This document shows, piece after piece, positions 5,056 to 50,338 of a stretch of DNA of 64,000 nt. The DNA comes from Eledone cirrhosa. Taxonomy: Eukaryota. The notes below the pieces were generated by a model, which saw only the letters and a program-made list of their open reading frames with translations, was not told the origin of the DNA and did not search any database. The stretch spans positions 54,126,001-54,190,000 of the forward strand of contig OZ024741.1 in assembly GCA_964016885.1 (NCBI GenBank), read 5' to 3'. Both the position numbers and the translations under genes were made by a program. The stretch's first letter is position 1; every line of letters starts with the position of its first letter.

Positions 5056-5068
5056 AGAAGAATAAGGA

Positions 5069-5430
5069 GGAGAGAGAAGTGCTGCTCCCCAGTACATTTT
5101 TTGAAAGGTGGGTGAATGTGGCGAGAATGGCCCGTGTGAGTGGGCCTACTCTGGTCATGTGGCTGTAGGTAAGTAAATTTGAGGAGGAGAGGGGTGCCCT
5201 TCCAGGGTGCTCTTGAAGCGTCGGGTCGTTCAGGATTGGTGGGGTACCTCAGCGAACCCTGGGTGGTCATCCCCACTATTGGGGAATTTTTCTTGTATTT
5301 TTCTTGTAACTTTATTATTGTTATTCATATTGTTTACTCGATTTTTCTGTAAAACCCCACTGTCCCAGTCCTTTGTATTGTTCCCTATATGTCAGCCCTG
5401 GTGGCCAATAAAAGAAATCATTATTATTAT
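5069..5430 (+). mobile_element. 5'-truncated 3' end of a Tx1-like LINE (family of copy B)
   Basis: Aligns by eye to ~16997-17360 (ORF2 end, 3'UTR, AATAAA, ATT tail). Confidence 0.93.
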
Positions 5431-5431
5431 C

Positions 5432-5525
5432 AGGTTAACTTTGCCTTTCATCCTTACGGGGTCGATAAAATAAAGTACCAGTAATGTACTGGATAATTGC
5501 TGGCCTTGTGCCAAAAGTAGAAACA

Positions 5526-5526
<1 letters not shown>
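5432..5526 (+). mobile_element. 3' half of tRNA-derived SINE family 1
   Basis: ggttaactttgcctttcatcc...gtgccaaaagtagaaacaatt matches full copies at 24463, 37477 and 44128. Confidence 0.9.

Positions 5527-5573
<47 letters not shown>
5526..5573. repeat. (ATT)n tract directly upstream of LINE copy A
   Basis: Visible directly. Confidence 0.98.
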
Positions 5574-5781
5574 GGCGACCTACGTAGTAAATCGTATCAT
5601 CGTGAGCTCCGCAAAGGTTTGTTATTTTCGTTTGTTAAAAATTGCCATTTATGGAAAATTTTATTGTTAACTGTTTATAAGCACACATACATTGTTTTCC
5701 GAAAAGGACACCCAAAAAGATTGGGGCCTTGTGCCCAAAATTTTAACTTTTATTATTATCCAAAAATTTCTTTAAAAAAAA

Positions 5782-7759
5782 ATGGCTAATTCCCCTCTGC
5801 ACGAAGCAGCTGAAAGCCTTCCTCCAAAAATAACACCTCACACCGACACCACCATTGTAAATGTTACTACGTTTGCCAACACAAAAAAAAATATAAGCAG
5901 TAGCAATATTTTAAATTTGTCTCAGGCAGACATTCATTTCCCGCCATTACCAATGACTGCAGGTGTTAAAGCCTCCACCACCACCACCACCGCGACAACC
6001 ACCACCCCCACCACCACCGCGACAACAGAAACAAAAGAAGAAAAAAATAAATTAACTCGTGATGTCGAAATGAAATCAAGCAAAATGGACTCTTCCGCAC
6101 CAAAGACGACTGACATCACCACCACCACAACTGAAACTAAAATTAAGATTAACACAAATAACGATAGCAACAACAACAACAATGACATTATAAAACCGAC
6201 CCTCAGTTTCGCCATCGTAGCAAAACAATTCGAAGCGTTCACGGTAACTCAAGAGGATTTAGAAAATGCCAAACTAATGGTAAAGAAACATGGGTACAGG
6301 GTTAGCCTCAACCCCCCACCTAATAAAATGGAGCATCGGCGCCTATGCACCGTGTCGTATAGAACAATAAATGTAAAATCGCGCCGAGTGGAACGGGCAT
6401 CCGAGTCCCAAATCCAAAAAGCTTTGGGACATGTGTGGGCAAGAAAAACCCACATCAGACGTGGGCAAAAGTATGGAACCGTGGATGTGTTCTTTGAAAC
6501 ACCAGAGGAGGCTAGAGAACACTCCATGGCCCCATTAAAAAGTGACAAGCTATTGTGGCCAGAGACTCGTAAAGATCAGGGTGACCCACGTTCCACCGGC
6601 CATCGAAATTCCCTGGCTAATAGCGGCTGTCCTCGCCGGCATCGAAGCCAACACGAAAATAATAGCAATAGCAAAAGAAAAGCAGGAAAACTGGTCCGGA
6701 TCTGGGATGGAGCACCTAATCCAAGCGGACCAAAAAAGCATTGAGGAGATCCCAGAGGTAATAGACCTCACTGACGGCAGCCACCTCACCGTAATTGTCG
6801 AGGGCAGAAGACCTAGGTGTGTCGTTTGTGGTGAAGGAACCCACCTAAGGGCTTTCTGCCCTCAGGCTAAAAGGTTGAGGCCACCTCTCCTACCCACCCC
6901 AGTGACACAACCATCAACACCACCAGTAGCAGAGATAGCAGCAACAACTGTAGCAGCAACAACAGAAGCAACTATAACAGCAACAACCCCAGCAACAGTA
7001 GCAAAACCAACACCACCACCACCACCAGCAAAACCAACACCGCCACCACCCAACGCTTCAGAACTAGCACCAGCGCCTACATCATCCACCACGCCACAAC
7101 CAAAACTAACGGCTGTGGAGTATTTTCCACTCCCCGGCCTATCACAACTGGAAACAGATTGTGACGACGAGGAGTGGGAAACGATATCCGGAAAAAAAAA
7201 AAGAAACCAAAAAAGAAAAAATTCTCTTCCTTCCCCCTCCAAAAACAAAATACAGAGGGAAACAAATAAATTAAGAAACAAAAAAGTTAGGACAGATATG
7301 CCACCATCCACACCAGCATCACCAACCCCATCAACCCAAACACCAACACCATCACCATCATTAACCCCAACACCACCATCACCTACACCACAAAAGTCAC
7401 CAAAATGCGAAACAGAAACAAACCCACAACAAACGCAAACAAAACAAAACAACCAAAACGATACACACTACACAGCATTAAATTTGAACAACAAGCAATT
7501 ATTACACTACATCCAACACAACACCAGCATCACAGAAAAAGATTACACAACAACCCCAAAATTCACACCACCTCCACACATACAAATCACTCGCATCTCA
7601 CAGAAAACGTACATAACACTAAAACAAAAATTCCCCAAAGACATCGGAGACTTCCGACAAGCACTCTCCAGGAGGATTTATAAGGACATCCTTCCTGAGG
7701 AGGCCACAAGCAGTGAAAAGGATGGAAAAACCGTCCTTCCCCTACAAGAAGTAAGGTAA
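5782..7759 (+). pseudogene. LINE ORF1 (RRM-like region, CX2CX4HX4C knuckle, Pro/Thr-rich tail), frameshift near 6550
   Basis: ORFs 5782..6744 and 6542..7759; CVVCGEGTHLRAFC; similar to ORF1 of copy B. Confidence 0.88.
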
Positions 7760-7793
7760 GTGGTCTTTCCCATCTTTTCCACTCCTTTTCAAC

Positions 7794-10700
7794 ATGACCT
7801 CACTCAGAATAGGCAGCATAAATGCGCGTGGCTTGGGGTCGTCATGGAAGCAGGGCCACCTGCTCAACGACCTCAGGTCACTAAACATAGATGTAGTGGC
7901 CATCAGCGAGACCAGAATCTCCGAAGCACAGGCTTTCGCACCGATCTTCGGCGGCTACGATGTGTACGCATCTCCCAGCCGTCAGGGATCGGGGGAGGAG
8001 TTGCTGTGCTTTTTCGGAGAGGTTTGGATCTTGCCATACGGGCCATCTTCCTGGACCCAGAAGGTAAGTTGGTGGTGCTGGACGTGTCCAGCGGAGACGG
8101 GCAAGCTTTCAGGTTAGTGGCCGTCTATGCCCCGACAGGAGCAGGGCGGCCTGATTTCTTCCGGCGTCTGGAGACTTTTCTTGGAACGTCCCGCTCTTTA
8201 GTGTTAGTGGGCGACTGGAACGGGATCTTAGATGCACGCTGGGATTGTGTGGGATTAGTGGATAGGGAAGGAGGGTGCAAGAGTCTCACCAACCTGCTCA
8301 GACGTTTTGAACTGTCTGACAGGTACCGAATGGATTTCCCGAATGTACCAATGTGGACTTGGACAAATCGCATAGGGTCATCCAGATCATATCTAGATAG
8401 AGTATTTTGTAGGGAAATAGATAGGTCTAGCATAGGCTGTCCACAATTCAAGATAGTCAGCTACGCGGACCACAAATTCGTGATCTGTGTGCTTGACTTA
8501 GATAGGCTTCATAGACAAGGACCCGGCTACTGGAAGCTAAACGCGTCCTTACCAGCGCGCAAGGCCTACAGAGACCGGATTAGCGAACTAGTTAAGCGGG
8601 CGTTGACGGGGGCCATCGTCAACAACAAGTGGTGGTTTGTTCTGAAATGAGCAATTAGAATAGAGTCCATTAGGTTTAGTAAGACTTTAGCAATAGAGAA
8701 AAATAGAGCAGAGGGAGAATTAGTTAGAAAATTAGATGAGGCGCTTAGCAAAGGCATCGCGACCGACGTACTTGCGGCGAAATTGGCCCTTGACCAATTC
8801 TTCAATGCAAAGCACGAAGGCTGCGTTGTGAGAGCTAGGGTGCGTGCTCTCAGACACGAGGGGACGAAAGCCGTTCAATGGGCCCGAGTGGCGGAGGCGC
8901 GTCGTGGCAACAAAGCCACGATCCGGTCTTTGGTGGACCACGACGGGCGCATGCTACTCGATCCCGGGCAAATGTGTGAAGCTTTTCAGCGACACTTCGC
9001 TCAACTGTTCGGGGGCAGTGGCGGGCCGGATCGAGGGATGGACTTTAGTGTCTACCTCGACGGACTGCCGCGGCTTTCGGCCACTGAGGCGGAGTGTTGC
9101 GAAAAGCCGATAACAACCGCTGAAGTACGGGATGCAATGACTAGTTGCACAAGGGGTAAATCGCCTGGTTTGGATGGTCTGCCCTATGAACTTTACGTAC
9201 AAATGCCAAACTTGTTCGGAGGCCTCTTGGCGGACGTCTACTGCAACTGGCAACAGAACGGGAGAATTCCCAGCTCTGTGAGCCGAGGAGCGGTGGCGCT
9301 GCTGAGAAAGGATCCGAACAAGGGGGATAACATAGATAATTTTAGGCCCATAACTCTGCTAAACACAGAGTTCAAAATTTTGGCCAAGGTGCTAGCAAAG
9401 AGGTTGGCGCTTGTCGTTGGTGGTCTGGTGGGAGAGGCACAGACATGCGCCATTCCCGACAGATCCATCCACGACAACCTCCACCTCATGCGATACATCG
9501 TAGAGAGGGTAGCTAAGGAACCTGGCACGGGTGGGTCTTTGATCAATTTAGATCAGTCGAAAGCCTTCGATAGGGTCGACCATCGTTACCTAGCGGCAGT
9601 CCTGAGGGCGGCTGGCTTTGGGCCCGTCTTCAGAGGCTGGATCGCTGCCATGCACAGCGACATCTGCTCTGTAGTGAGAGTGAACGGTCACCTTTCGGAA
9701 CCGTTCAACATCATGCGCTCGGTCCGCCAAGGATGTCCCCTCTCGTCCCTATTGTACGTATTGACTCTCGAGCCATTACTGCACAAACTGGAGACGTTGA
9801 GGGGGGTCCCGCGCGAACTAGGATGCGGAAGATCCGTGTCAGCATATGCCGACGATGTCACCGTAGTGGTGTCGAACGCCAAACACATCGAGGCGATCGG
9901 CACTACACTAAGAGAATACGAAGCGGTGACAGGAGCAATGATCAACCAGAAAAAGTCAGTGGGCCTGCAGCTCGGCACCTGGAGAGGCAGGTCCATGCCG
10001 TCCAACAGCGTCGTCGGGCGCTGGACGGACGGACCGGTTAAATTGTTAGGGGTCTGGTTAGGTCCAGACCTCCAGACGGACAAAAACTGGGACGAGGTGA
10101 CGAGCAGGGTGGCTTCTCTCACCCAGAAATGGGCCGAGAGGAAGCTATCCCTGAAAGGTCGAGCGGAGGTGGCGAATGCGTACATCGCATCCGTCATCTA
10201 CTACCGCCTGACCGTCGTACCTTGTCCTAAGCCCCGCCTGACTGCGGTGGAGCGTTTGCTCTTTCGCTTCTTGTGGAAGGGACGCGCTCCGATGGTCAGG
10301 CGGTCCATCTGCTGTCAACACCCGCTACGTGGAGGGCTGGGCATGCCGTGGCTGATGATGTTCAGACACGCGCTCAGGCTACGACATCTCCACCTCTTCC
10401 TCGACGGTGATCAGGTGTGGTCGCCGTTTGCAAGACACGTTTTTCCCCAGCTCGTCTCCTTGACGGAGCTGCAGTCCTGGGTCAAGCGAAGACCGAGAGG
10501 GAGCGCTTGGAGACTGGAATGTCTTCAGGCGCTCACAGCCCTCGACCAATCGGGCAATGTGATCGGTGGAAACTCCACCTTGGCGTTCTATAGGGGATTA
10601 GTGGAGGGGAAGAGCGACGACGTACTTGGAGAAACTCTAGGCGTCGACGAAAATCAACTAGCCAATCTCTTCGGAAGGACTTTCGGGCCGGGGCCTATGG

Positions 10701-11212
10701 ACAACTTCCAGAAATCCCTGGCCTGGCAGTGATACCGAGGAGCTTTGCCAGTTCGGGATAAACTCTACAGGCATGGAGGTGCCGTCAGCCGGGCATGTCC
10801 GAGATGCGCGCAGGGCGACGAAACCGTCCTGCACGCACTCGTCCAGTGTCCGAGCATTGCTGACTTGTGGGTTTATGTCGAACACCTGCTGTCACGTGTA
10901 GGACGGATCCAGCTATCAGCTGAGTCCATCGTGAGGATTGCCCCGCCCCCTTCCTTTAGCCTGGAAGGGCAGGCAGTTTTTATCTGTCTGGTGGCCATGG
11001 CGAAAGAGATAGTATGGTGGACACGTTTGAAAGGGCTGAAGACGAGCACTTACCTCTTCGGTGATGCCCTGATTAACTTTTTCAAATTTCATTTGAAAAG
11101 GAAAATCAGGGTAGAGAGGGAAGTGCTCTCTTCCCAGCATTTTGTTGAAAGATGGGTGAGAGAAGCAAGTATGGCCCGAATGAATGGGCCTTCTCTGAGT
11201 ATGTGTCTGTAA
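7794..11212 (+). pseudogene. LINE ORF2 (APE endonuclease, RT, C-terminal Zn finger); frameshift near 7990, stops at 8648 and 10730
   Basis: SINARGL, VYAP, GDWN, ADHK, KAFDRV, QGCPLS, YADD, CPRC...H...C. Confidence 0.93.
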
Positions 11213-11461
11213 ATTAAAGGTGGAAAACTGGGAGAGGGCACTTGCCCTGGTGGTCAGGGCCACTGTGGTCTTTTAATGGGCTTTCTCCACAAATGTCCCT
11301 TGGAAGTCCCCTCCCTATTGGGGAATTTTTCTTTGTTATTTTATTTCAACCTCTGTTTTTTTACACGCAGAAATGCCCATTTGTACCGTCCTGTATTGTC
11401 CTGTACTGTCCTTAATGTCTACTTTATGTGAACCCTTGTGGTTAATAAAGAAAACAAAAAC

Positions 11462-11475
11462 ATTATTATTATTAC

Positions 11476-11521
<46 letters not shown>
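11462..11521. repeat. (ATT)n spacer between LINE copies A and B
   Basis: Visible directly. Confidence 0.98.
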
Positions 11522-11732
11522 GACGAAAGTGGATGTACGTTTTTTTGAAGCTCCGTGAGTAAGCAATTTTTTGAGGATTAATTGTGGAGAATTGTTTATT
11601 TTTTGTACCGCTGAAGCATTATAAGACATTCATTTGTATCCTGTGAAGGAATAACTCATAATATTTGGGCCTTTTGGCCCAAATATTTGAACTTTATTTT
11701 GGAAAAATAATAATTTTTTTTCTCAAAAAAAC

Positions 11733-13646
11733 ATGGCGGAGCCACGCCCCCTAGAGGCGGGTTTGCTGTCGTGCAACGGCGACTTGAGCGTTGAGAGGAG
11801 AGGTGGGGCGAGGAGCGCCACCAGCACGAGTGTGAGCAGCGACAGTGCCAGCACCAACGGGCCGAGCGGCGCGGAAGGTGGTAACAGCGACAACACCAAC
11901 ACCAACAAGCCGAACAGCGCAGAAGGTGGTAATAGCGAGAGCACCAACAAAACGAACAGCACAGAGAGTAATATTAGCGACAGCAGCAGCACCAACAAGG
12001 CCAACAGCACAGTGGGTAACCGCGACACAGGGGAGAACAACAACAGCAATAGCAGCAGCAACACCAACAAGAACAACAACAGTGACAACACCAACAAGAA
12101 CACCTTCGCTGCTGTGGCAGCGGCTAAAAGGAGACCATGCTACAGCATCGACTTAACCAACAGAGAGGAAAAGTTGGCCCAGGCCTGGAAAATCATAAAT
12201 CAAGAGCAGACCTGGGCAAACTTAACTGTCCCGGCAGAAGCCATTGAGGCAGTGGAAAAAAGAACGGTGCATTTCAGATGCATCTCAGTAGAGACAAAGA
12301 GGGCAGCGATAATCGCCCAAGCTGATATAGAAGCCGCACTGAAATACATCAGAGAGGACACAGACTTCATAGAGAGGGGCAGGCAATACGGCACAGTTTC
12401 GGTGCTGTTCAAGTCTGAAGCCCTCGCTGTGAAGCATTCAATGACCCCTTTCAAAACCAGCAAGGTCATAATGTACCCCTCCCACATGGGAAAACGAATA
12501 GCACGTGTGCGCATTCCCAGGATTCCACCAGGACTTGATATGTGGTGGCTCCTGGGTTGCGTAATCGTGGAAGGAACGGATACAGTCCCGGTAGAGGCAA
12601 CGAGAACTGCCAGGGACGACTGGTCCGGGGTTGATCTGGAGATACTGCTCCAAATCAGACCCGAAAACGTAAAAGCAATCCCGGACCACATCCGCCTCCA
12701 AAACGGGAGGGTGTTGCATATAATGACTGAGGGCAAAAGGCCGCATTGTTTCCTTTGTGGGGAAACGACACACTTGCGAGCCTTCTGCCCTCAACTGCCG
12801 AAAAGCGCAAGGGGTCGAAAGATTCCACTGCTGGCGACGCCGGGACAAGGACCACCAGCAACACCGTCAACAATGGAACCACCAAAATTGCACACCCAGG
12901 GGGGAAACGAGGAAAGCTCTCCCATTCCCCCTCCCCCCCAAAATACACACACGAACAAGAACATAAACACTCACTCAGACACAAACACGCTCACAGCCAC
13001 AGACCCCTCATCCTCCAGCAGTGAAGATGAGGGAAAACCAAAGTCCCCCAAAATACAAAAAACAAAACACAAAAAAAAAAAAAGAAATCCACAAAGCACA
13101 AACACCCCCACAAAAAAAAATACACACACCACCCACACAAACATTTTCCCCACAGCATCACCAACACAACCACCAAAATCCCCCAAACGCAAACAAGCTA
13201 AACAGACACAAGAACAAATAGACACACAAACATCAGAAACTACAGACACCCCACCCACAACAAACGCAGACACAATAGAAACAACACTAACAAAGCTATC
13301 ACCACCACAATCACACGAACAAATAAAACCCGAGCAACAAAACATTAAAAACTTCGTGCTTGCCAGAAGGGCCAACAAGGAATTGATGGCCCATGTAGCA
13401 CGAAGCACAAACATCGAAAAAGACGGGGAAACATTTGAAGCGAGCACATTTCGCGTACCAGATAATTTGCTTCTGATGCGAATGTCGCTCGCTTCATACA
13501 AAGAAATTCGAAAGAGCTTTCCTCGGGATGTGGGAACCCCGAACGTAAAACCCACGTCAAGACTATTAAAGGGGTTCCCAAAAGAAACCCCACAAACCAT
13601 GGAGGTCGAACCACCCGACCTTCACAAGACCCCGGAAGGTAAGTAA
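11733..13646 (+). CDS. LINE ORF1p nucleic-acid-binding protein (CCHC zinc knuckle)
   Basis: Uninterrupted 637 aa; CFLCGETTHLRAFC; low-complexity N and C regions. Confidence 0.9.
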   Translation: MAEPRPLEAGLLSCNGDLSVERRGGARSATSTSVSSDSASTNGPSGAEGGNSDNTNTNKPNSAEGGNSESTNKTNSTESNISDSSSTNKANSTVGNRDTGENNNSNSSSNTNKNNNSDNTNKNTFAAVAAAKRRPCYSIDLTNREEKLAQAWKIINQEQTWANLTVPAEAIEAVEKRTVHFRCISVETKRAAIIAQADIEAALKYIREDTDFIERGRQYGTVSVLFKSEALAVKHSMTPFKTSKVIMYPSHMGKRIARVRIPRIPPGLDMWWLLGCVIVEGTDTVPVEATRTARDDWSGVDLEILLQIRPENVKAIPDHIRLQNGRVLHIMTEGKRPHCFLCGETTHLRAFCPQLPKSARGRKIPLLATPGQGPPATPSTMEPPKLHTQGGNEESSPIPPPPQNTHTNKNINTHSDTNTLTATDPSSSSSEDEGKPKSPKIQKTKHKKKKRNPQSTNTPTKKNTHTTHTNIFPTASPTQPPKSPKRKQAKQTQEQIDTQTSETTDTPPTTNADTIETTLTKLSPPQSHEQIKPEQQNIKNFVLARRANKELMAHVARSTNIEKDGETFEASTFRVPDNLLLMRMSLASYKEIRKSFPRDVGTPNVKPTSRLLKGFPKETPQTMEVEPPDLHKTPEGK

Positions 13647-13675
13647 ACCTTTCCTCCACCATTCATCCTGCCAGC

Positions 13676-16600
13676 ATGGCCATAAGAGTAGGAAGTTTAA
13701 ATGTTCGTGGCCTGGGGTCGCCCTGGAAGCAAGGTCACTTGCTCAACGACCTCAGGTCACTAGGAATGGATGTAATTGCCATCAGCGAGACCAGAATTTC
13801 CGACACACGCGCACTGGCGCCGATTTTCGACGATTATCAGATCTTTGCATCTGTTAGTCGGCCGGGAATGGGAGGTGGAGTGGCTGTGCTGTTTAGGAAA
13901 TGTCTGGATCTCGAGGTAAGGTCAATCTTCCGGGATCCTGACGGAAAGTTGGTGGTCCTGGACGTGAGCAATAGCGAAGGTGGTGCCTTTAGACTGGTGG
14001 CCGTCTACGCCCCTACTGGGGCCGGTCGGCCGGACTTCTTTAGGCGCCTGGAAAACTTTCTGCTTACGTCTCGCCCTTTACTGTTAATAGGGGATTGGAA
14101 TGGCATCTTAGAAGCACGCTGGGATTGTGTGGGAGTATCTGATAGGAGCGGGGGGTGCAAAAGCCTCAAGTACCTGATCAGCCAGTTTCAACTGTCTGAC
14201 AGGTACCGACTAGATTTCCCTAATGCGCCAGTATGGACCTGGACCAATCGCATAGGGTCATCTAGATCGTACATAGATAGGATTTTCATTAGGAAAAGAG
14301 ATAGAAATAGTGTAGGATGTCCACATTTTAAAACGGTTGCCTATTCAGATCACAAGCTTGTGATCTGTATGGTCGACCTAGATAAGACACGTAGGTTAGG
14401 ACCCAGCTACTGGAAGCTAAACATGTCGTTTCCGGCACGTAAAGCTTACAGGGACCGGGTCAACAACTTAGTTAAGCAAAAGTTGACAGGGGGGGTTGTC
14501 AACAACAGGTGGTGGGGGGCACTCAAAAGAGAGATTAGAGCAACCTCGATAGGATTTAGCAAAGAAGTAGCAATAGAGAAAAATAGAAAGGAGGAGGGGC
14601 TGATAGCTAAGTTAGACGAGGCTATTTGTAGTGGCATTGCAACAGACGTGCTAGCGGCGAGAATGGCACTAGACCATTTCTTCAATGCGAAACACGAAGG
14701 TTGCATTGTCAGAGCTAAGGCGCGTGCTCTGAGGAACGAGGGAACCAAAGCTGCCCGATGGGCTCGCTTTGCAGAGACGCAGCGTGGAAATAAAACCACA
14801 ATTCGGTCTTTGACGGATCGAGATGGACACGAACTGAGCGATTCCAAGCAGATGTGTGAGGCCTTTCGCCAGCACTTTGCTCGATTGTTCGGGAGGATGG
14901 GTGAGTCGGAGACGGCGGCGGACTTCAGTCCCTACCTCGACGGCTTGCCACGCCTCTCGACGGCCGACGCTGAGCGCTGCGAAGAGCCGATAACATCAGC
15001 CGAAATTCAGGACGCCCTTGTCGGCTGCTCGAGTCGCAAGTCACCCGGTTTGGATGGTCTGCCCTACGAGCTTTACGTAAATATGCCAGACTTGTTCTCC
15101 GATCTCCTCGAAGCGCTCTACTGCAACTGGCAGCAGAACGGGAGCATTCCCAGTTCTGTGAGCCGTGGCGTAGTGACGCTGATAAGGAAAGACGAGAACA
15201 AGAGGGACACACTAGATAATTTCAGGCCCATAACCCTGCTCAACACAGAGTTTAAGATTTTGGCCAAGGTGTTAGCGAAAAGGTTGGCGCTTGTCGTCAA
15301 AGATTTGGTTGGGGAGGCGCAAACTTGCGCAATCCCGACCAGGTCCATACACGACAACCTCCACCTCATGCGATACATCATAGAGAGGGTTGGGTGCAAA
15401 CCTGGCTTCGGTGGGGCTCTGATCAATTTAGATCAATCGAAAGCATTCGATAGGGTCGACCATCGGTACTTGGAGGCTGTCCTCGAGGCGGCTGGCTTCG
15501 GCCCCGTCTTCAGAAGCTGGATCGCTGCAATGTACAGCGGCATCCGCTCGGTGGTCAAAGTTAATGGCCACCTCTCGGAACCGTTTCAGATCTCTCGATC
15601 GGTCCGTCAAGGGTGCCCTCTCTCCTCACTTCTGTACGTATTGACTCTTGAGCCTCTACTGCGGAAGCTGGAGTTGTTGCAGGGCATCCCGCTCGAACCG
15701 GGACGTAGAAAGGCTGCGTCCGCTTATGCGGACGACATCACCGTGATGGTGTCGGACACCTCGGAAATCGAGGTGATCCGCACCCATTTGGAGGAATATG
15801 AAAGGTTGACGGGAGCAAAACTTAACCCGGAAAAGTCGGTGGGCTTGCAGCTCGGCACCTGGAGAGGCAAGTCCATGCCGTCCAACAGCGTCGTTGGGCG
15901 CTGGACAGACGGACCGGTAAAGTTGCTCGGGGTTTGGTTCGGACCAGACCTCCAGGTGGATAAGAATTGGGACGAGGTGACGAGCAGGATAGCCAACCTC
16001 ACCCAGAAATGGGCTGAGAGAAAGCTATCACTGAAAGGGCGGGCGGAGGTGGCGAACGCGTACATCGCGTCCGTCATCTACTACCGCCTGACCGTCGTGC
16101 CTTGCCCCCGTCCACGCCTCGCCAATTTGGAACGGCTCCTTTTCAAATTTTTGTGGAGGGGACGGGTCCCGTTGGTGAGGCGGTCCATCTGCTGCCAGCA
16201 CCCTCTTCGTGGAGGGCTGGGCATGCCGTGGCTAATGATGCGCAGACATGCGCTGAGGCTGCGACATCTCCAGATATTTTGCCTAAACGGTGAACAGGTG
16301 TGGTCGCCGTTTGTTAGACGGGCCTTTCCGCAGCTCATCTCTTTGACTGAGCTGCAGTCCTGGGTCAAGAAGAGACCGAGACTGGGCGACTGGCATCTGG
16401 AATGTTGCCAGGCGCTCACTGCACTCTGCAAGGTGGGCAATGCGGTCAGTGGAACTTCCACTCAAGATTTCTATAGAGGATTAGTGGAGGGCAAGTGCGA
16501 TGACGTACTAGGAGAGGCTCTGGGCGTCAACGAAGTAGAACTGACCAGTATGTTCCGGAGGACTTTCGAGCCGGGGACGATGGATAACTTCCAGAAATCC

Positions 16601-17095
16601 CTCGCTTGGCAGTGCTACCGGGGGGCGCTGCCGGTTCGGGATAAACTCTACAGGCACGGAAGTGCTGTCAGACGAACCTGCCCGAGATGCGCGCAGAGCG
16701 ACGAAACCGTTCTGCACGCACTCGTCCAGTGTCCGTGCATTGCTGACTTGTGGGGTTATGTCGAACAGCTATTGTCGCGTGTAGAACGGATCCGGCTATC
16801 GTCCGAGTCCATAGTGAAGATTGACCCGCCGCCTTCTTTTGGTCAGGAAGGGCAGGCAATTTTCCTCTGCCTGGTGGCAGTAGCGAAAGAGGTTGCATGG
16901 TGGACCAGGTTGAAAGGACTGAAGACAGACACTTTTCTCTTCGGCCAATCCCTCATCAACTTCTTCAAGTTTCACTTGGAAAGGAAGGTGAGGGTGGAGA
17001 GAGAAGTGCTGCCCCCCAGTACATTTACTGAAAGGTGGGTGAATGTGGCGAGAATGGCCCGCGTGAGTGGGCCTACTCTGATCATGCGCCTGTAG
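13676..17095 (+). CDS. LINE ORF2p: APE endonuclease, reverse transcriptase and Zn finger (Tx1-like)
   Basis: Uninterrupted 1139 aa; SLNVRGL, GDWN, SDHK, YWKLN, SPGLDGLPYE, QGCPLS, YADD, CPRC..ETVLHALVQC. Confidence 0.96.
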   Translation: MAIRVGSLNVRGLGSPWKQGHLLNDLRSLGMDVIAISETRISDTRALAPIFDDYQIFASVSRPGMGGGVAVLFRKCLDLEVRSIFRDPDGKLVVLDVSNSEGGAFRLVAVYAPTGAGRPDFFRRLENFLLTSRPLLLIGDWNGILEARWDCVGVSDRSGGCKSLKYLISQFQLSDRYRLDFPNAPVWTWTNRIGSSRSYIDRIFIRKRDRNSVGCPHFKTVAYSDHKLVICMVDLDKTRRLGPSYWKLNMSFPARKAYRDRVNNLVKQKLTGGVVNNRWWGALKREIRATSIGFSKEVAIEKNRKEEGLIAKLDEAICSGIATDVLAARMALDHFFNAKHEGCIVRAKARALRNEGTKAARWARFAETQRGNKTTIRSLTDRDGHELSDSKQMCEAFRQHFARLFGRMGESETAADFSPYLDGLPRLSTADAERCEEPITSAEIQDALVGCSSRKSPGLDGLPYELYVNMPDLFSDLLEALYCNWQQNGSIPSSVSRGVVTLIRKDENKRDTLDNFRPITLLNTEFKILAKVLAKRLALVVKDLVGEAQTCAIPTRSIHDNLHLMRYIIERVGCKPGFGGALINLDQSKAFDRVDHRYLEAVLEAAGFGPVFRSWIAAMYSGIRSVVKVNGHLSEPFQISRSVRQGCPLSSLLYVLTLEPLLRKLELLQGIPLEPGRRKAASAYADDITVMVSDTSEIEVIRTHLEEYERLTGAKLNPEKSVGLQLGTWRGKSMPSNSVVGRWTDGPVKLLGVWFGPDLQVDKNWDEVTSRIANLTQKWAERKLSLKGRAEVANAYIASVIYYRLTVVPCPRPRLANLERLLFKFLWRGRVPLVRRSICCQHPLRGGLGMPWLMMRRHALRLRHLQIFCLNGEQVWSPFVRRAFPQLISLTELQSWVKKRPRLGDWHLECCQALTALCKVGNAVSGTSTQDFYRGLVEGKCDDVLGEALGVNEVELTSMFRRTFEPGTMDNFQKSLAWQCYRGALPVRDKLYRHGSAVRRTCPRCAQSDETVLHALVQCPCIADLWGYVEQLLSRVERIRLSSESIVKIDPPPSFGQEGQAIFLCLVAVAKEVAWWTRLKGLKTDTFLFGQSLINFFKFHLERKVRVEREVLPPSTFTERWVNVARMARVSGPTLIMRL

Positions 17096-17348
17096 GCTGG
17101 TGAATTCGAGAAGGAGAGGGGTGCCCTTCCCGGGTGCCCTAGGAGCGTCGGGTAGCTCAGGACTGGTGGGGTGCTTGAGTCAACCCTGGGTGGTGATCCC
17201 TCTTATTGGGGAACTTTCATTGTTGTATTTTTATTGTTATTTTGTTTTTTTGTTATTTATACTTACTCGATCTCTATGTAAACCCCCACTGTCCCTGTCT
17301 ATTGTGTTGTCCCCTATATGTCGGCCCTTGTGGCCAATAAATGAAATC

Positions 17349-24338: not shown

Positions 24339-24462
24339 ATATCCATATAAACTCACTCAAACACACACACACACACCCAACCCGCCTGCACATACAATAA
24401 CACTCTTAGTAAGATACACACATCCACCCCATCTATTCAGCCACCACACCTCTTTCTGCAAT

Positions 24463-24654
24463 GCGGTGGATTGACAGAATCGGTAGAGCATCGGACAACA
24501 TGCTTAGCGGCATAGGGTTACGGTCCTTTACATTCTGAGTTCAAATCTCGCCGAGGTTAACTTTGCCTTTCATGCTTACGAGGTCGATAAAATAAAAAAA
24601 CCAGTAATGCACTGGGATAATTGTTGCCCTTGTGCCAAAAGTAGAAACAATTAT
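24463..24654 (+). mobile_element. tRNA-derived SINE family 1, full length
   Basis: Pol III A/B boxes (gagttcaaatc), conserved body, tail gtgccaaaagtagaaacaatt. Confidence 0.9.
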
Positions 24655-25568
24655 CACTTCATCTCATCCAAAACTTTGATCACAAGCTCTGGATATGTAT
24701 TTGTCTACTCATTTGACACACACACACACACACATACACACACGCACGCACGCACACGCACACACTCATGCATAAAGGCACTCACATAAACACTAATAAT
24801 TGCATGAACTCACTCAAACACACTCACACACTAATAACATCCATACCATCAGCCTCCAACACACACGCACACAGAGAGAGACATAAACATAGGCAAATAC
24901 ATATACATACATATGCACACAACTGTGCATATACATACACCAAAATCACAAACACTCATGTATATACACACATATATACGCACACACAAACTTCCATCAG
25001 TGATACACAGAACACGCTCTCACACACAAAGGAGAAATAAATTCACCGACATACACAGATGAAACGCACTCTAATCTGCACCCCGAACTACTTGCTTGCC
25101 ATCCTCATCCATCCTAAAACCTCCAGTAATTTTCTCAAAATAGATTTTCTTTTCTTGATATAGGGGCTCGAAGAACCAACATCACGCGTTCGGCCAGTTC
25201 CCCTGTATCAAGAAAAGTATATATTTTTCGAGAAAATTACTGAATGTTTTTCAAATTCCAAGATTTTTTTAGGAACATTCAATGTTTTCAAGTTTTTACT
25301 GGTTTTGCCGTTTGAAGAGCTCAGGCTATCATAACTGATAGTCCTCAATGAAATATATAAAATGGAGTTTTAAATAAACCTGAATCAACTGATTATGGCC
25401 TCCGATCTTTTAATATATAATGCTCCGGCTTCCAACATTTATACAAGTCGTTGAGCGCTTCTTTTTATCTGCTTCACATCCGTCAGATCATAATGTTGTC
25501 CTCACAACCCTGTTTGGTTAACCCATATAATCTAACTATCTATCTATCTATCTCACTCCCTCTTTCTC

Positions 25569-35345: not shown

Positions 35346-38211
35346 AGAGCACGTATTTTCGTTTCCCAGAGCACGTATTTTGCTTCTGACAACGCAGCCT
35401 TCATTCTTTGCGTCGAACAACTGGTCCAAGGCCGTTCTCGTCGCTAGCAGGCTGGCTACGTTGCCACTCCTAAGTGCCTTTTCTACTTTATCTACCAGTT
35501 CCTTTTCGGTTTTAGTTCTATCTAACACTAATTCTTTACTAAAAGCTATCGAGTCTAATCTAACTGCCCTCTTGAGAGAGTACCACCATCTGTTGTTGAC
35601 AATGGCCCCCGTCAAGTGCTGCTTAACTAAAGTGCTAATATGTCTATTGTAGGCTTTGCATGTCGGTAACGACAAGTTCAGCTTCCATTAGCCGGGTCCC
35701 AGTCTATGGGTTTTATCAAGGTTGACTACGCAGGTCACTAATTTGTGATCTGAATAGGCAACCATGAACATTTGTGAACAGCTTAACATGTTCCTATCCT
35801 TCTTTCTAACTAGAACCCTATCTAGGTACGATCTAGATGTTCTCCTACGATTAGTCCACGTCCACAGTGGCACAGTCGGAAAATATAGTCGATATCTATC
35901 GGCCAGGTCAAATCGGCCGATTAACTGTTTGAGGTTGTTACACCCCTCTCTATCGGGACATGCTCCCACATAGTCCCAACGTGCATCTAGGATTCCATTC
36001 CAGTCCCCCACTAACAGCAGGGAGCGGGACGTTCCCAGAAAAGTCTCTAGACGTTTGAAGAAGTCTGGCCGCGGTGTCCCGGATGGGGCATATGCGGCCA
36101 CCAGCCTGAAGGCTCCACCTTCACTACCGTCAACGTCTAGGACCACCAGTCGACCCTCCGAGTCCAGATGTACGAGGTCCAGGTGTTTCCGCAGCAAAAC
36201 GGCAACCCCACCCTCACCTCCCGGCTGACAGAGAGATCTGCGTAGATCTCAAAGTCGTCGAAGATGGGGGCCAGTTGTCGCTCACTGTGGATCCTGGACT
36301 CGCAAATGGCTACTACATCCATACTGTGCGACCTGAGGTCGTTTAAGAGTTTGTCCTATTTACAGGGCATCCCCAGGCCGCGTACATTCACACATCCAAC
36401 TCTTACATTGGCCATGTTGGTGCTGAAAAGTTAAAAAAAGAGGAAAAGAAATCACTCACCTCTTCGTCTCCTGGGGACCAGGCTGCATAATTTCCATGGA
36501 GGTGTTGGAGGGGTTGTTTGGTGTGGTGGTGGTCTCTGGAGGGGTGGGGACAGAGATGTTTTATGGGGAGGGGGTGTCTGATGGGATGGGGGTGGGTGTG
36601 GGGAAACATTTTAACAGGACTCGATTGTAGGGTTTGACGCAGGGGTTACCTACGTCGTTAGGAAATTTTTCTTTTAACTCTTTATGTGTGTCCATGGAGG
36701 TCCTAATCATTTTAAGATTAGGATTCTCCGAAGAGTGTGTAAAAGTTTTCCCTTCGGACTCCACCGAAGGGTTTTTATATATGGTGTCTGTTAAAGTTTT
36801 ATTGTTAGTATTTATGTAGGTGTAACTTTTTTGTTGTGTTGGGTTGCTTTTTGTCTGTGGTTCTTGTGTGTGTTTACGTTTTGTAGTAAGTGTTTTGTTT
36901 TCAGTAGGGGGTGTTTTTGTTTTTGTTTTGCTGTTTGCGTCGCTTGTGTTGGTGTTTGTGTGTTTGTTGCATTTTTGTTTGTGTTATGTCTTTTCTTTTT
37001 CTTTTTACTGGTCGGAAAGGCTCTCCCTCATTGTCACTAGGTGACGATGATGAGGTCTCATCCGTGTTGTTGGGGAGGGGTACATTTTGGGGAGTTGTTA
37101 TGTGTGTGGGTGTTTCTGGAGTTGTTTTAGGTGGAAAGGGGTTGGGTGGGACTGTGTTTGTCGTTTGTTTTGTTGTCACTATTTTTTTATGTTGTTGTTG
37201 TTGTTGTGGTGGTGGTGGTGGTGATTGTTGTGTTGGTGTTGCAGGTGTTGGCAGTAGTGCCTTTTTTAGGCTAGCAAGCTCTCAGGTGAACCCTGTTTAA
37301 GCAGTGGTAACATGAGGGCCGCCTACCATCGATCGAAATGTTTATGTATATAAGCCCATCCAGCAACACACGTTCCGGGATCCTAGCTATTCGTTCTGGT
37401 GTCATTTGGACCAGAACTTCCAGGCTAGTTCCGCTGAACAGGTCGCCGGAGGACTTACCTACCGATATTATATAGTGGCAGTATCGGTAGAGAGTTGGAC
37501 ACCATGCTTTGAAGCATAGAGTTACGTCCCTTTATGATCTGAGTTCAAATCCCGCCGAGGTTAACTTTACCTTTCATCCTTACGGGGTCGATAAAATAAA
37601 GTACCAGTAATGTACTGGTTGATTGCTGGCCTTGTGCCTAAAATAGAAACAATTATATAGTCTGTTTCGAGGTTTAAAAATCCACATAGTACCCACCAAA
37701 TATCAATATTTGGTGTGATACTTTGGATTTTTATTTTCTGTGTTCTTTTCCCCATGTATGTGGGGAAAAAGGCGAACAGCGGTGACACAATTGGCGACAC
37801 AGAATATTTCTGTTCCCTCAATTGGTCTTTCATTAGAATGGATAAACTCCCGTAGAGTCTACCCTTCTGAATAAAAGCAATGTCTTTTAAGGCATTTTTT
37901 AAAGCCAACTCAATTTCACCTTGTGAAAGTTGAGTCGGTTTTCGTGTTTTGTTTGAGATTGTCCTGAAAATCAAAGTTTTCAAGGCAGCTTCTCTTCGCA
38001 AATCTGGGGGAGAGTTTATGGAGAATAATCCGTTCACCCCAAAAGTTACATATTGTCTGGCGTTATTCATAAGCTTATTTGCATTTGAAATATCTACCGG
38101 TGTGTAGCTTACCGTTTTCTTTACGGTTTGCGCAAATGATATTTTGTCGTTTACTTCCTTGTTGCAGTTATTGGTCTTGTTGTTGTTATTATTGTTCTTG
38201 TTTATTATTAT
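35346..38211 (-). mobile_element. Decayed Tx1-like LINE copy C (ORF1 remnants and APE part of ORF2, ATG at 36415)
   Basis: MANVRVGCVNVRGLG, FRLVAAYAP, GDWNGILDARWD, SDHKLV; ORF1 KEKFPNDVGNP. Confidence 0.9.
37477..37651 (+). mobile_element. SINE family 1 inserted in ORF1 of copy C, 10-bp TSD attatatagt
   Basis: TSD at 37467-37476 and 37652-37661. Confidence 0.92.
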
Positions 38212-40537
38212 GGTCGCACATGTGAGAAGACAGTACAAATCTGCGGTGGAAAAGATTCGTAACTTTAAGCTGTTTTAAAGTGTAATTTTTTGTATTTTCT
38301 TGTCGTTAACGAAACGTAAGGTACACATCTTGATTTAAAGAGAGGGATACCTCTCAATATTCGGGCTATAAGCCCGAATATTCAGATTTATTTTTAAAGA
38401 CTTCGAAAAAAATCGCTTTCCCACCAAAAAAGATTATGGAAATGTTCGACCTTGAAACGGTAAACAACGTTCAGGTCAAAAGTTTAAAGGCAGCCACTGT
38501 AGATTTCACCACGCTACGACGGCTACAGTCATGCCTGTCATCCACTCTACTGAATGTGAAGGCAAAACTCAACCTCCTGTGATAGCAGCAGTATCATCTG
38601 AAAACGACATCACCACCACCGCCACCACCACCACAACAACAGCAACTCAGAGCAATAACGACAATAATACCGACAGCAAGAATGACAACACCAACAATAA
38701 GAGCATCAGAAGCACCACATTTGCTGCAGCAGCAGCAAAAACAAAGCGCTTATTGAATATTGATATTGATATTAGCGATAAAGACGAACAGTTGGCCAAA
38801 GCGTGGAGGCTAATTAAACGGGAGAAGTCCTGGGCAAACCTGACCATCCCGGACGAGGCAATAGCGGCCATGCAGAGGAGGACGGTGTTCTTTCGATGCA
38901 TTTCGGTGCAGACACGAAAAGTGGAACTTGCCAGCCAAGCAGAGGACGAGGCTGCTTTGGAGTACATCGGAAGTAACATAGAGTACAAAGCAAGAGGCAA
39001 ACAGTTCGGTACCATCTCGGTACTGGTCAAAACCGAGGCCCTCGCTATTAAGCACTCGGTGACCCCCTGAAGAACGGAACGCATTATCATGCATCCGTCC
39101 TACATGGGTAAAAGGACAGTAAAGGTACGCATTCCCAGCATCCCACCAGGAATGAACATATGGTGGCTGCTGGGATGCGTAATCGAGGAGGGGACAGACA
39201 CTATCCTCCTGGATATCAAAAGGACAGAGAGAGAGGACTGGTCCGGAATGGATTTGGAGATTATTCTCCAAATGAAACCGGAGGACATGAACAACATCCC
39301 GGATTTTTCTCGCCTGCAGGACGGGACAACAATCCAACTAATCATTGACGGAAGAAGGCCACGCTGCTTCGTCTGCGGGGAAGCAACGCATCTGCAAGCC
39401 TTCTGCCCTCAGCGCAAAAATGCAGGGGGTCGCAAACCTCCTTTGTTGCCAACGCCAGTGTCAGCACGGAGAGCTCCACCACCACCACCAACAAAATCAC
39501 GGACACCGACATAAAAAAACAGCCGGATCACCACCAACACCAAAACCAATCCAAGGGGAAAACGAGGAAAGCTCTCCCACTCCCCTACCCCCCAATTATA
39601 CACATAGATAAAACAATAAACGCACACACAGACACAGAGACACTCACAGCCACAGACCCTTTGTCTTCCAGCAGCGAAGATGAAGGAAAACCCAAAAGTG
39701 TAAAAAAACAGATAAAACTCACAATAAAAAGCCCCAACAAAACACAAAAACATACACAACAAAAAATACAGACACCACTAACGCAAACACTTCCCCAATA
39801 ACATCATCACCAACAGCAACATCGACACCACCTTCACCATCCCCGAAAGGCAAACAACCTAAACAAACACAAGTACAAATAAACACACAAATACCTGAAA
39901 TTGCAGACGCCACACCTACAACAAACACAGACATACCCGAAACAACACCACCAAAACCATCACCACCACAGTCACCAAAACGAAAACAAATAAAACCACA
40001 CCAACAAAATGTTAAAAACTTCGTGCTTGTCAGAAGGGCCAACGATAAACTGATGGCCCTCTTAGCACGAAGCGAGGACATTCAAACAGAGGGGGAGATT
40101 TTTGAAATGAGCATATTTTGCGTGCCAGAAGATTTGCTTCTGGTCCTAATGTCACTCAATTCCTTCAAAGAAATTCGAGAGAGCTTTCCTCAAGTCGTGG
40201 GAACCCCGAATATGAAACCCACATCAAGACTTTTAAAGGGGTTCCCAAAAGAAACCCCACCAACCATGGAGGTCGAACCACCCGACCTTCACAAGACCCG
40301 GGAGGTAAGTAAACCTTCCCTCTCTCTCTAAGCTTACCAATATGGCCATATTAAGAGTAGGAAGTTTAAATGTTCGCGGCCTGGGGTCACCCTAGAAGCA
40401 GGGTCGCCTGCTCAACGTCCTGAGGTCGAATTTCCGACACGCGCGCACTAGCCCCCAATTTCAACGACTATCAGATCTTCGTATCTGTTAGCAGGCCGGG
40501 AATGGGGGGTGGGGTGGCAGTGCTGTTTAGGATCTGG
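38212..40537 (+). mobile_element. Decayed Tx1-like LINE copy D (5'UTR, ORF1, start of ORF2), 3'-truncated
   Basis: ORF pieces 38531..39070, 39089..39514 and 40023..40331 resemble copy B ORF1; CFVCGEATHLQAFC. Confidence 0.9.
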
Positions 40538-44127: not shown

Positions 44128-44720
44128 GGGCGGTGGATTGGCAGTATTGGTAGAGGGTCGGACGCCATGCTTTGACGCATAGAGTTACAGCCCTTGCCAT
44201 TCTGAGTTCAAATCCCGCCGAGGTTAACTTTGCCTTTCATCCTTACGGGGTCGATAAAATAAAGTACCAGTAATACGCTAGGTAATTGCTGGCCTTGTGC
44301 CAAAAGTAGAAACAATTATTACACCAATGTGGTGAATTGGTAGTATCGGTAAAGGGTTGGACGCCATGCTTTGTAGCATAGTTACGTCCCTTTACGATCT
44401 GAGTTCAAATCCCGTCGCGGTTAACTTTGCCTTTCATCCTTACTGAGTCGATAAAATAAAGTACCAGTAATGCACTGGATAATTGCTGACCTTGTGCCAA
44501 AAGCAGAAACAATTATTACAGCAATACAGGCAGTGATTGGCAGCATCGGTGGAGTGTCAGGTACCATGCTTTGCAGCATAGTGTTCCGGGCCTTTACGTT
44601 GAGTTCACATCCCGCTGAAATCAACTTTGCCTTTCATCCTTACAGTGTCGATAAAATAAAACACCAGTAATGCGTTAGGGTATTTGCTGGCCTGGTGCCA
44701 ATAGTAGAAACAATTATTAT
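44128..44720 (+). mobile_element. Three head-to-tail SINE family 1 copies
   Basis: Units at ~44128, ~44328 and ~44528, each ending agaaacaattatt. Confidence 0.92.
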
Positions 44721-50164: not shown

Positions 50165-50338
50165 AATAATTGTTTCTTCTTTTGCACAAGGCCAGCTATT
50201 ACCCCAGTGTATTATTGGTACTTTATTTTATCGACCCCGTAAGGATGAAAGGCAAAGTTAACCTCGGCGGGATTTGAACTCAGACTGGCAAGGGCCGTAA
50301 CTCAATGCGTCAAAGCATGGCGTCCGACCCTCTACCGA
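50165..50338 (-). mobile_element. SINE family 1
   Basis: Reverse complement of the 44128-type copy. Confidence 0.88.

Follow-up and report, generated by a model that had tools for sequence, protein, structure and literature searches.

The window analyzed here, a stretch of 64,000 nt, contains the LINE copies A, B, C, and D and a fragment of a fifth element, and the features on which the present analysis draws are as follows.

5058..5430, plus strand: family L, 3' fragment of the fifth element
5574..11475, plus strand: element A (family A1), a Tx1/L1-type LINE between (ATT)n runs, both ORFs frameshifted
7756..7761, plus strand: phase 2 junction donor of A (GTAAGT), which shares bases with the ORF1 stop TAA 7757-7759
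7762..7793, plus strand: pyrimidine-rich spacer of A, with CAAC at its end before the ORF2 ATG (7794) and no AG inside
7794..11212, plus strand: ORF2 of A, ending in TAA and thus with a stop that holds no acceptor
11355..11370, plus strand: candidate replacement acceptor in the 3'UTR of A, a T-run followed by a CAG ending at 11370, of putative use
11521..17348, plus strand: element B, an intact young LINE, with 327 copies having its junction
11555..11560, plus strand: putative 5'UTR donor-like GTGAGT of B
11733..13646, plus strand: ORF1 of B, 637 aa, with one CCHC knuckle
13639..13644, plus strand: phase 1 junction donor of B (GTAAGT), from which a 3,457-nt intron is predicted to start
13676..17095, plus strand: ORF2 of B, 1139 aa (APE endonuclease, RT, zf-RVT), predicted to be wholly intronic
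17073..17095, plus strand: predicted acceptor of B, a pyrimidine-leaning run and a TAG doubling as the ORF2 stop
17096..17341, plus strand: 3'UTR of B, the predicted last exon, with AATAAA at 17336
36454..36459, minus strand: junction donor of C (GTGAGT), phase 2, with the ORF2 ATG at 36415
40305..40310, plus strand: junction donor of D (GTAAGT), with the ORF2 ATG at 40342

The copy of C in the window, on the minus strand, is missing its 3' part, and that of D, on the plus strand, is broken and 3'-truncated. Regarding their class, ORF2 has the domain order of an L1/Tx1-type protein, with Pfam matches to Exo_endo_phos, RVT_1, and zf-RVT (an N-terminal APE endonuclease, RT, and a C-terminal zinc motif), and its best solved relative is human L1 ORF2p (E 3e-57). 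A separate ORF1 carries CX2CX4HX4C in its translation; it gave zero matches to Pfam, and its neighbours in the Atlas included ones with zf-CCHC at 0.89-0.92, which may serve as a lead. Relatives of ORF1 were found by name in Octopus vulgaris, O. sinensis, and Argonauta hians, and the search of viral contigs returned no matches. The elements have (ATT)n or (ATCT)n at both their 5' and 3' ends, as in Tx1-like insertion into microsatellites, and form tandem arrays with a spacing of approximately 5.84 kb; from this anatomy and general knowledge of the group, we take them to belong to the Tx1 clade. The ORF2 start motif occurs in at least 10,807 copies in the genome.

The first-pass annotation had drawn attention to a splice donor at the ORF1/ORF2 junction of the four LINEs, and its description of this donor was borne out: AG/GTAAGT is present at 7756 in A, 13639 in B, and 40305 in D, and AG/GTGAGT at 36459 on the minus strand in C, with a pyrimidine run 3' of the donor in all four; in A, B, and C, the donor also overlaps the stop of ORF1. 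The conservation that it had proposed to check extends well beyond the window, the site scoring 7.5-8.5 of 9 against the U1 consensus, and thus qualifying as a 5' splice site, in 12 of the 12 related LINE families scored. It was also found in 71 of 74 sampled junctions, in 29 of the 30 copies of L, which is a 13th family, and in all 20 junction variants of a distant lineage that is 41% identical in ORF2. Since donor-grade sites elsewhere number 10 in 55,861 other element positions, or approximately 0.011 per 60-nt window, a donor in every family, despite only 0.46-0.59 identity at four-fold sites between the main clades compared, is not due to chance, and these sequence comparisons point to conservation under selection. 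A donor at every stop codon is not a general feature of this genome. Among wider L1/Tx1 relatives, represented by 23 metagenome loci chosen from 70 and 22-48% identical to the query in the best segment, none had a donor scoring at least 7.5 within 130 nt of ORF2, and the same applied to L283 and L286; the junction donor therefore appears to be limited to a clade.

The donor sequence stays constant while its ORF1 phase shifts among families, and its variants (GTAAGT, GTGAGT, GTAGGT, and GTAATT) track the U1 consensus whatever the frame of the stop. This behaviour is difficult to reconcile with a translation signal that merely resembles a donor, either for termination-reinitiation or as a pyrimidine-tract-binding site shielding an RNA with a long 3'UTR from NMD, a reading which we regard as very improbable. 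In all lineages, the motif is adjacent to the ORF1 stop or overlaps it, as such a signal should, and CU-rich tracts right behind the stop are described as protecting retroviral RNA from NMD (PMC4764554); however, the distant lineage keeps the donor without any tract, and this reading fits the tract, not the donor.

The first-pass annotation had further suggested that a mini-intron, which would need to be 37-66 nt in length (39 in E and 42 in F), fuses ORF1 to ORF2, or that 5'UTR donors are spliced to an acceptor at the ORF2 start. Its frame analysis by hand was reproduced, in that the removal of 7756-7807 from A gives an in-frame fusion and the donor at 13639 in B joined to the CAG at 13674 is out of frame; the other donor proposed for B, at 13643, is indeed in frame, but is weak and leaves an intron of merely 32 nt. 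An in-frame AG lies within 37-66 nt in all 11 families of known phase, AGA encodes the Arg close to the ORF2 start in every family listed, whereas none of eight other invariant Arg columns keeps one codon, and the spacers of C and J, with TTTTCAG or CCTAG, are intron-like. However, the ORF2 start supplies AGs in phases 1 and 2 anyway, and the supposed conserved acceptor before the ORF2 ATG dissolved on comparison: an AG lies between the donor and the ATG in only 4 of the 11 families possessing this ATG and is missing in the other 7, and that of A sits inside ORF2, in Arg codon 5. The pyrimidine run is anchored to the donor, starting at approximately +7 to +10, and not to any AG. ORF2 has its own ATG, in a CAAC-like context, in 11 of 12 families, and a mini-intron is impossible in the distant lineage, where the stop of ORF1 precedes the donor by 1 nt and is separated from the ORF2 ATG by 13 nt.

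Genomic copies lacking the spacer, another check proposed in advance, amounted to zero, while intact junctions numbered 327 in B, 308 in E, 1,482 in F, and 2,406 in A1 (4,523 in total); by contrast, approximately 2% of human L1 copies are spliced (131/6,609; PMC5860796). The absence of spacer-less copies counts against a fusion because ORF2p would be encoded by the fusion RNA itself, which would then be copied in cis. The GTGAG motifs noted in the 5'UTRs at 5602, 11555, and 38222 are present, and donor-like motifs occur near the 5' end of most families; copies of B spliced from a 5'UTR donor to ORF2 numbered zero, as did copies spliced from the 5'UTR to 12465. A search for copies spliced from the 5'UTR donors of F and A1 also found none, the leftovers being one point mutant in F and 18 mutants plus one unrelated place in A1. 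Considering these results, we give hardly any credence to a mini-intron or to 5'UTR splicing into ORF2. Two other mechanisms were rejected at the same place, namely, stop read-through or frameshifting, since the spacer frame differs among families, and the creation of an acceptor by A-to-I editing of CAAC, for which introns would be 24-46 nt and the AA is absent in family H.

A more probable partner for the donor, not noticed in the first-pass annotation, lies 3.46 kb downstream, where the end of ORF2 resembles an acceptor, with a pyrimidine-rich run leading to CTG TAG/G. ORF2 ends in CT(G/A) TAG in ten families (B, C, D, E, F, G, H, I, L, and J), the pyrimidine share before this TAG being 0.60-0.75. 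When the donor was joined in silico to the AG of this stop within the same element, ORF1 ended within three codons, a sensible product, in 8 of the 10 families, F doing so in just 3 of 7 copies. Among phase 1 families, this was found in B (1/1), D (3/3), I (3/3), and L (10/10 TAG copies), and among phase 2 families, in E (6/6), G (2/2), H (5/5), and F (3/7); the joined ORF1 protein is identical to the unspliced one in E, G, H, and the three F copies. In B, TGA 17101-17103 would end the spliced ORF1 at an unchanged 637 aa, with W as the last residue in place of K, and in family L, the ORF2 stop TAG 5166-5168 is followed by GT AAG TAA, with which the ORF1 end G-K-stop would be restored. The frame of the stop behind the TAG follows the donor phase, and the other phase lacks one in B, D, I, E, G, H, and F; family L has stops in both phases. 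The rule is broken by C (0/3), J (one deleted copy), and four of the seven F copies; in C and J the stop is in the wrong phase, and a second AG is needed, 7 nt before the stop (C and F) or 8 nt after it (J).

The background rate of a prompt stop after any YAG is 160/1,241 (0.13), and among the 80 YAG columns that at least six families share, that of the ORF2 stop takes first place for own-phase stops (8/9, in both phase groups) and second place for pyrimidines. Within single families, its pyrimidine rank is 1-2 of approximately 100-120 YAGs in C, E, F, G, and H and only 6th-16th in B, D, I, and L. Branch point candidates seen by eye are CTGAC/CTGAT in D and B, with nothing clear in E, G, and H and none common to all. 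The match between phase and frame has a naive p of 6e-4 with J left out of the count; because the families share descent, with approximately three independent lineages, this becomes roughly 0.002-0.04 by our own arithmetic.

In families A1 and A2, ORF2 ends in TAA, and a CAG behind a T-run lies 159-179 nt into the 3'UTR. A phase 2 join to this CAG in A would extend ORF1 by 19 residues, and in 34 of 38 cases the ORF1 stop comes after 19 codons, before AATAAA, phase 1 reading being free of stops in 30 of 35. Family A has lost the AG of the ORF2 stop but has a strong candidate acceptor in its 3'UTR. In the distant lineage, all 13 readable variants have a pyrimidine-rich TAG in the 3'UTR, 237-278 nt from its start; this lineage and family L also carry donor-like motifs at the start of the 3'UTR, which a one-intron model leaves unexplained.

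These acceptor-side features bear on the main rival, in which the site binds U1 snRNP without being spliced, as the first-pass annotation had also considered. The bound U1 would then either silence cryptic poly(A) signals in the A-rich tail of ORF1 or assist the transcription of an intronless 5.8-kb RNA. We consider this unlikely as the sole explanation. The last 500 nt of ORF1 contain 19 poly(A) hexamers, with 13.7 expected from synonymous shuffles (P 0.04), but the first 1 kb of ORF2 contains 2, with 5.6 expected (P 0.07), the families not being independent in either comparison; the lack of spliced copies in F and A1 despite 5'-end donor-like motifs in most families, and in everything tested, is in line with this reading, as is the same U1 role in the copia element EVD (PMC5580714). 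However, the U1-only reading explains neither the donor-phase stop behind the ORF2 TAG nor the 3'UTR acceptor of the TAA-ending A families. A U1 role of this kind can coexist with an ORF2 intron. We also regard as improbable an EVD-like arrangement in which the donor is joined to a nearer acceptor inside ORF2, e.g., a pyrimidine-rich TAG approximately 450 nt downstream, with early polyadenylation giving a short ORF1 mRNA without the 3'UTR. Of 11 families, 10 have a YAG at this site, its pyrimidine content (0.70) exceeds that of every other shared column, and its RNA, lacking the 3'UTR, would leave no genomic copies; however, it gives a prompt ORF1 stop in 0 of 10 families, its pyrimidines follow from hydrophobic codons, and early ORF2 is poor in poly(A) hexamers. 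Evasion of HUSH was set aside since splice sites alone are reported to give no protection (PMC8770142).

The donor, the acceptor-like ORF2 end, the in-frame stop behind it, ORF2's own ATG, and the lack of spliced genomic copies are direct readings of the DNA. On this basis, the donor likely pairs with the acceptor at the ORF2 stop, making ORF2 an optional 3.46-kb intron, the splicing of which would yield a short ORF1-only mRNA. The predicted RNA of approximately 2.4 kb (5'UTR, ORF1, and 3'UTR) would supply most of the ORF1 protein, and would escape decay because its stop would lie at the last junction, ahead of a short 3'UTR. In the unspliced 5.8-kb RNA, translation of ORF2 would begin at its own ATG, probably through reinitiation, and this RNA may alone be copied back into DNA because no ORF2p would be made in cis by the spliced form. 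As for the pyrimidine run that follows the donor, its role is probably to adjust how often the donor is used or to protect the unspliced RNA against decay. With somewhat less assurance, we lean towards a wider view, in which a cephalopod-wide LINE clade treats its whole ORF2 as an alternatively spliced intron, with splice sites in both stop codons kept in frame, so that splicing sets the ORF1p:ORF2p ratio in convergence with the copia/retroviral strategy, the ORF1-only RNA perhaps being the dominant transcript of more than 10,000 copies.

ORF2-less genomic copies were absent in B, E, F, A1, A2, and L (the A1 and A2 patterns covered second exons with starts other than GT, and that for L covered one start); this is expected under cis-preference and is not support. 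The non-matching places (38 in A1, 8 plus 3 in F, and 13 in A2) were point changes or small indels, besides two deletions not ending at AG. In contigs of unrecorded kind from four runs compared with element B, none of the 15 joints listed, of 1,691, starts at the donor; X1, X5, and X6 contigs span the B junction unspliced, and X1 contigs break at 13624 and start at 17032, the predicted positions being 13639 and 17094; these contigs speak neither for the model nor against it. Searches of ORF1 proteins for spliced C-termini found nothing. ORF1 protein representatives end, e.g., in G-K or G-E, which is compatible with the donor and proves nothing. The model yields exact junctions that are testable at once in existing octopus RNA-seq. 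If it is true, splicing would leave no trace in genomic DNA, as the spliced form would not be copied back, and expression would have to be read differently, since reads from ORF1 and the 3'UTR would not imply a transposition-competent RNA.

Among known systems, HAL1 half-L1 elements are ORF1-only, L1-type, and genomic non-autonomous; the predicted RNA resembles them in its ORF1-only form, and differs in that no ORF1-only genomic copy was found here. The anatomy is that of L1-Tx1 clade LINEs of octopus (PMC13282606, Table 1), which have two ORFs, an APE-RT-zinc ORF2, a CCHC ORF1, microsatellite targets, and tandem arrays; neither "splice" nor "ORF2" occurs in the main text of that report. The excess of ORF1 over ORF2 protein in LINEs has been explained in few cases, termination-reinitiation being described for mammalian L1 and SART1 (PMC5972666), and a spliced ORF1-only mRNA, if true, would be a different answer. 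Human L1 also makes RNA with splice sites, which are functional there and predicted here, as reported for SpIREs and SpORF2 (PMC5860796, PMC2896524); its 5'UTR donors remove promoter or ORF1 sequence, giving ORF2-only RNA and dead-end copies (approximately 2% of full-length L1), whereas the product predicted here is ORF1-only, is frame-coordinated across families, and leaves no copies.

Parallels are also found in LTR elements. The shGAG RNA of the Arabidopsis Ty1/copia element EVD likewise depends on a conserved U1 site at the border of structural and enzyme regions, where U1 is described as serving both splicing and protection from premature termination (PMC5580714); EVD combines a short intron with premature polyadenylation, whereas the intron predicted here covers ORF2 in full and the RNA would retain its normal 3'UTR. 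The spliced gag RNA of Drosophila copia has an intron of approximately 3 kb and terminates in the 3' LTR (PMC5580714). As in copia, the enzyme region would be removed by the use of a donor closing the structural gene and an acceptor close to the 3' end of the element, and structural protein would be made in excess; unlike copia, an LTR element with one gag-pol frame, the present element is a non-LTR LINE with two ORFs in which both splice sites overlap stops and splicing is a prediction. The LINE is therefore predicted to work like copia without being a member of it, which, if true, represents a convergence of a LINE with LTR elements.

Elements A to D are LINEs with two ORFs. Their insertion sites are (ATT)n or (ATCT)n repeats and they occur in tandem arrays, and from this setting and these arrays we take them to be Tx1-like. 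Element B is intact; its ORF2 contains APE endonuclease, RT, and zf-RVT domains, and the closest relative of ORF2 among solved structures is human L1 ORF2p. At least 10 family B copies lie head-to-tail at a spacing of ~5.84 kb (genome G000, C1:423365317-423418069). The named sources of ORF1 relatives were Octopus vulgaris, O. sinensis, and Argonauta hians, which points to a probable octopod host; another relative of 603 aa (P0197, 33% identical) ends in G-K, and its contig measures 2,209 nt, as would be expected for an ORF1-only RNA. Elsewhere in the window, ORFs at 54459-56020 and 61403-62008 have, by eye, a Penelope-type look with a GIY-YIG-like end. A short repeated element, probably a SINE, occurs in many copies (5432-5530, 24459-24657, 37476-37656, 44130-44720, and 50166-50338), one of which interrupts ORF1 of element C.

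The first-pass annotation described a splice donor at the ORF1/ORF2 junction of each element; all four were found at the positions it gave, and its frame arithmetic held on recomputation:

7756, donor of element A
11733-13646, ORF1 of element B
13639, donor of element B
13676-17095, ORF2 of element B
36459, minus strand, donor of element C
40305, donor of element D

The 3.0-Gb genome contains 10,807 matches to a 17-nt motif at the ORF2 start, and the first 70 of these places, together with the four window elements, formed our sample of junctions (n=74). The donor was present in 71, the three exceptions being a point mutant, a copy with a deletion, and a truncated copy. The sample sorted into 12 families with four-fold sites 0.46-0.59 identical between the main clades; the U1 match was 7.5-8.5 of 9 in one representative of each, while donor-grade sites numbered 10 among 55,861 other positions. 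A 13th family, L, carries the donor in 29 of 30 copies. The donor lies in phase 2 of ORF1 in families A1 (that of element A), A2, C, E, F, G, H, and J and in phase 1 in B, D, I, and L, with an uncertain phase in K, for which there is one broken copy only. Since the phase differs among families, the donor does not arise merely as a consequence of the stop codon, and it is a real feature.

The donor also extends to a distant lineage (41% identical in ORF2) whose copies stand in tandem on animal-like contigs of a bacterial MAG. In that record (CAXXMW, L244-L289), many contigs consist of an intact two-ORF LINE repeated in tandem, which indicates that the bin holds animal-like host DNA. All 20 junction variants read TAA G/GTAAGT, 7 nt, ATG (slash, donor boundary). 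Because the ORF1 stop lies upstream of the donor and the pyrimidine tract is absent, an ORF1-ORF2 fusion is impossible there, although the donor is kept. The donor was absent from 23 of 23 more distant L1/Tx1 loci, chosen from 70, and from L283 and L286.

The annotation had proposed an AG near the ORF2 ATG as the acceptor, either for the junction donor, as a mini-intron fusing the ORFs, or for a splice from 5'UTR donors. The pyrimidine run holds a fixed position relative to the donor and not to any AG; the candidate mini-introns are 37-66 nt long. A pre-ATG AG occurs in only 4 of 11 families, the AG of element A is an Arg codon within ORF2, and the ORF2 ATG with its CAAC-like context is retained in 11 of 12 families. 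LINE RNA is preferentially copied in cis by its own product, and spliced copies made up 131 of 6,609 human L1 copies (PMC5860796); a fusion RNA would encode reverse transcriptase and would therefore be copied in cis. No genomic copy precisely lacking the spacer was found, against 327 intact junctions in B, 308 in E, 1,482 in F, and 2,406 in A1, and the places not matching an intact junction were mutations or deletions, none ending at an AG. Together with the incompatible distant lineage, these results strongly disfavor the fusion, and a mini-intron or a splice from the 5'UTR, an interpretation now replaced, is very improbable. A short intron plus early polyadenylation is scarcely more plausible, and a translation or decay signal at this conserved junction appears just as improbable as the mini-intron or 5'UTR splice.

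A different partner is suggested by the 3' end of ORF2, which shows a pyrimidine-leaning run, CT(G/A) TAG, and then a purine-rich stretch. Joining each copy's own donor to its own TAG placed an ORF1 stop within three codons in the phase-1 families B (1/1), D (3/3), I (3/3), and L (10/10 TAG copies) and in the phase-2 families E (6/6), G (2/2), and H (5/5), as well as in 3 of 7 copies of F. In phase-2 families, the joined exon begins G-TGA or G-TAA and the protein is identical; in phase-1 families, the stop comes one base later in frame, such that B would end E-G-W-stop instead of E-G-K-stop, both at 637 aa. In the window fragment of family L (5166-5176), the join would restore G-K-stop. These stops lie outside the ORF2 frame and are, thus, not back-up stops for ORF2. 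A prompt stop followed any YAG in 160 of 1,241 cases, and among 80 YAG columns common to at least six of 11 families, the ORF2 stop ranked first (8/9) and was the sole top column scoring in both phase groups. In A1 and A2, ORF2 ends in TAA, and a T-run CAG lies 159-179 nt into the 3'UTR; a join there adds 19 residues, and in 34 of 38 cases the stop precedes AATAAA. Frame imposes no constraint in the distant lineage, in which all 13 readable variants (14 in total, one cut off) have a pyrimidine-rich TAG at 237-278 nt of the 3'UTR. This lineage (L245-L278) also has a second donor ~20 nt past the ORF2 stop, and with AG sites at ~+50 and ~+260 a 3'UTR intron is possible.

Several observations weigh against this acceptor. 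The simple rule is broken in C (followed by 0 of 3), in J (one deleted copy), and in 4 of 7 copies of F; C and J have the stop in the other phase. Splicing would have to use an AG 7 nt upstream of the ORF2 stop in C and F (yielding S-L-stop) and one 8 nt downstream in J (nine extra residues). Family L has stops in both phases, and the predicted acceptor in B, D, I, and L ranks 6th-16th by pyrimidines. Since the tree of families, which excludes L, holds only about three independent lineages, the naive p of 6e-4 (J left out) becomes about 0.002-0.04 by our own arithmetic. ORF2-less copies were not found in genome searches of families B, E, F, A1, A2, and L, which is expected under splicing, yet is not support for it.

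U1 binding that protects the RNA without splicing is unlikely, but less so than the other alternatives; donor-like motifs in 5'UTRs and, for some elements, where the 3'UTR begins fit it, as do poly(A) hexamers that are slightly overrepresented immediately 5' of the donor (19 observed vs 13.7 in synonymous shuffles). The 5' motifs lie 30-90 nt from the end (window 5602, 11555, and 38222; L061-L120), are followed by U-rich sequence, and occur in most families, with none obvious in I; spliced genomic copies from them were not found for F and A1. In sequencing run X1 aligned to element B, one contig begins right after AG 12463-12464 (start 12465) and the following one terminates at 13624, each with ~nine times the depth of its neighbors, although contig depth cannot rank parts; no genomic deletion or spliced copy matching these bounds was found.

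Only 0-2 AG dinucleotides occur in the 150 nt preceding AATAAA (window 17185-17335 and the corresponding stretch elsewhere) in 11 of 11 elements checked, and 3' ends share a U-run with TAC(A/T)CG and a GTGG(C/T)-AATAAA-like end. Ends have also been exchanged between families (L366, L295, L298, and L299), as in one copy of family L whose end is of the A type, and family F has two end types, pointing to recombination or template switching.

Considering the sequence evidence, the best explanation is probably that one promoter gives two RNAs, with ORF2 spliced out as an intron; donors, acceptor-like sites, frames, and the absence of copies are observed, whereas we infer splicing, its yield, and its purpose. 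The unspliced 5.8-kb RNA would express ORF2 from its own ATG and serve as the retrotransposition template, while removal of 3.46 kb would leave an ORF1-only mRNA of ~2.4 kb with a short 3'UTR. In B, the first exon of this mRNA would measure 2,115 nt, and the remainder up to the poly(A) signal about 245 nt.

In published cases, L1 splicing takes out 5'UTR or ORF1 sequence (PMC5860796, PMC2896524), the introns of TART are antisense (PMC1636488), and ORF2 is expressed by termination-reinitiation (PMC5972666). Searches of the open-licence literature turned up no LINE described as having a conserved intron that spans ORF2, and the predicted splice is directly testable with existing RNA data. The predicted ORF1-only RNA may be likened to the gag RNA of Drosophila copia, and the junction donor may be compared with the double role of U1 in Arabidopsis EVD (PMC5580714); the element described here differs in being a LINE outside that group, with splicing that is only predicted.
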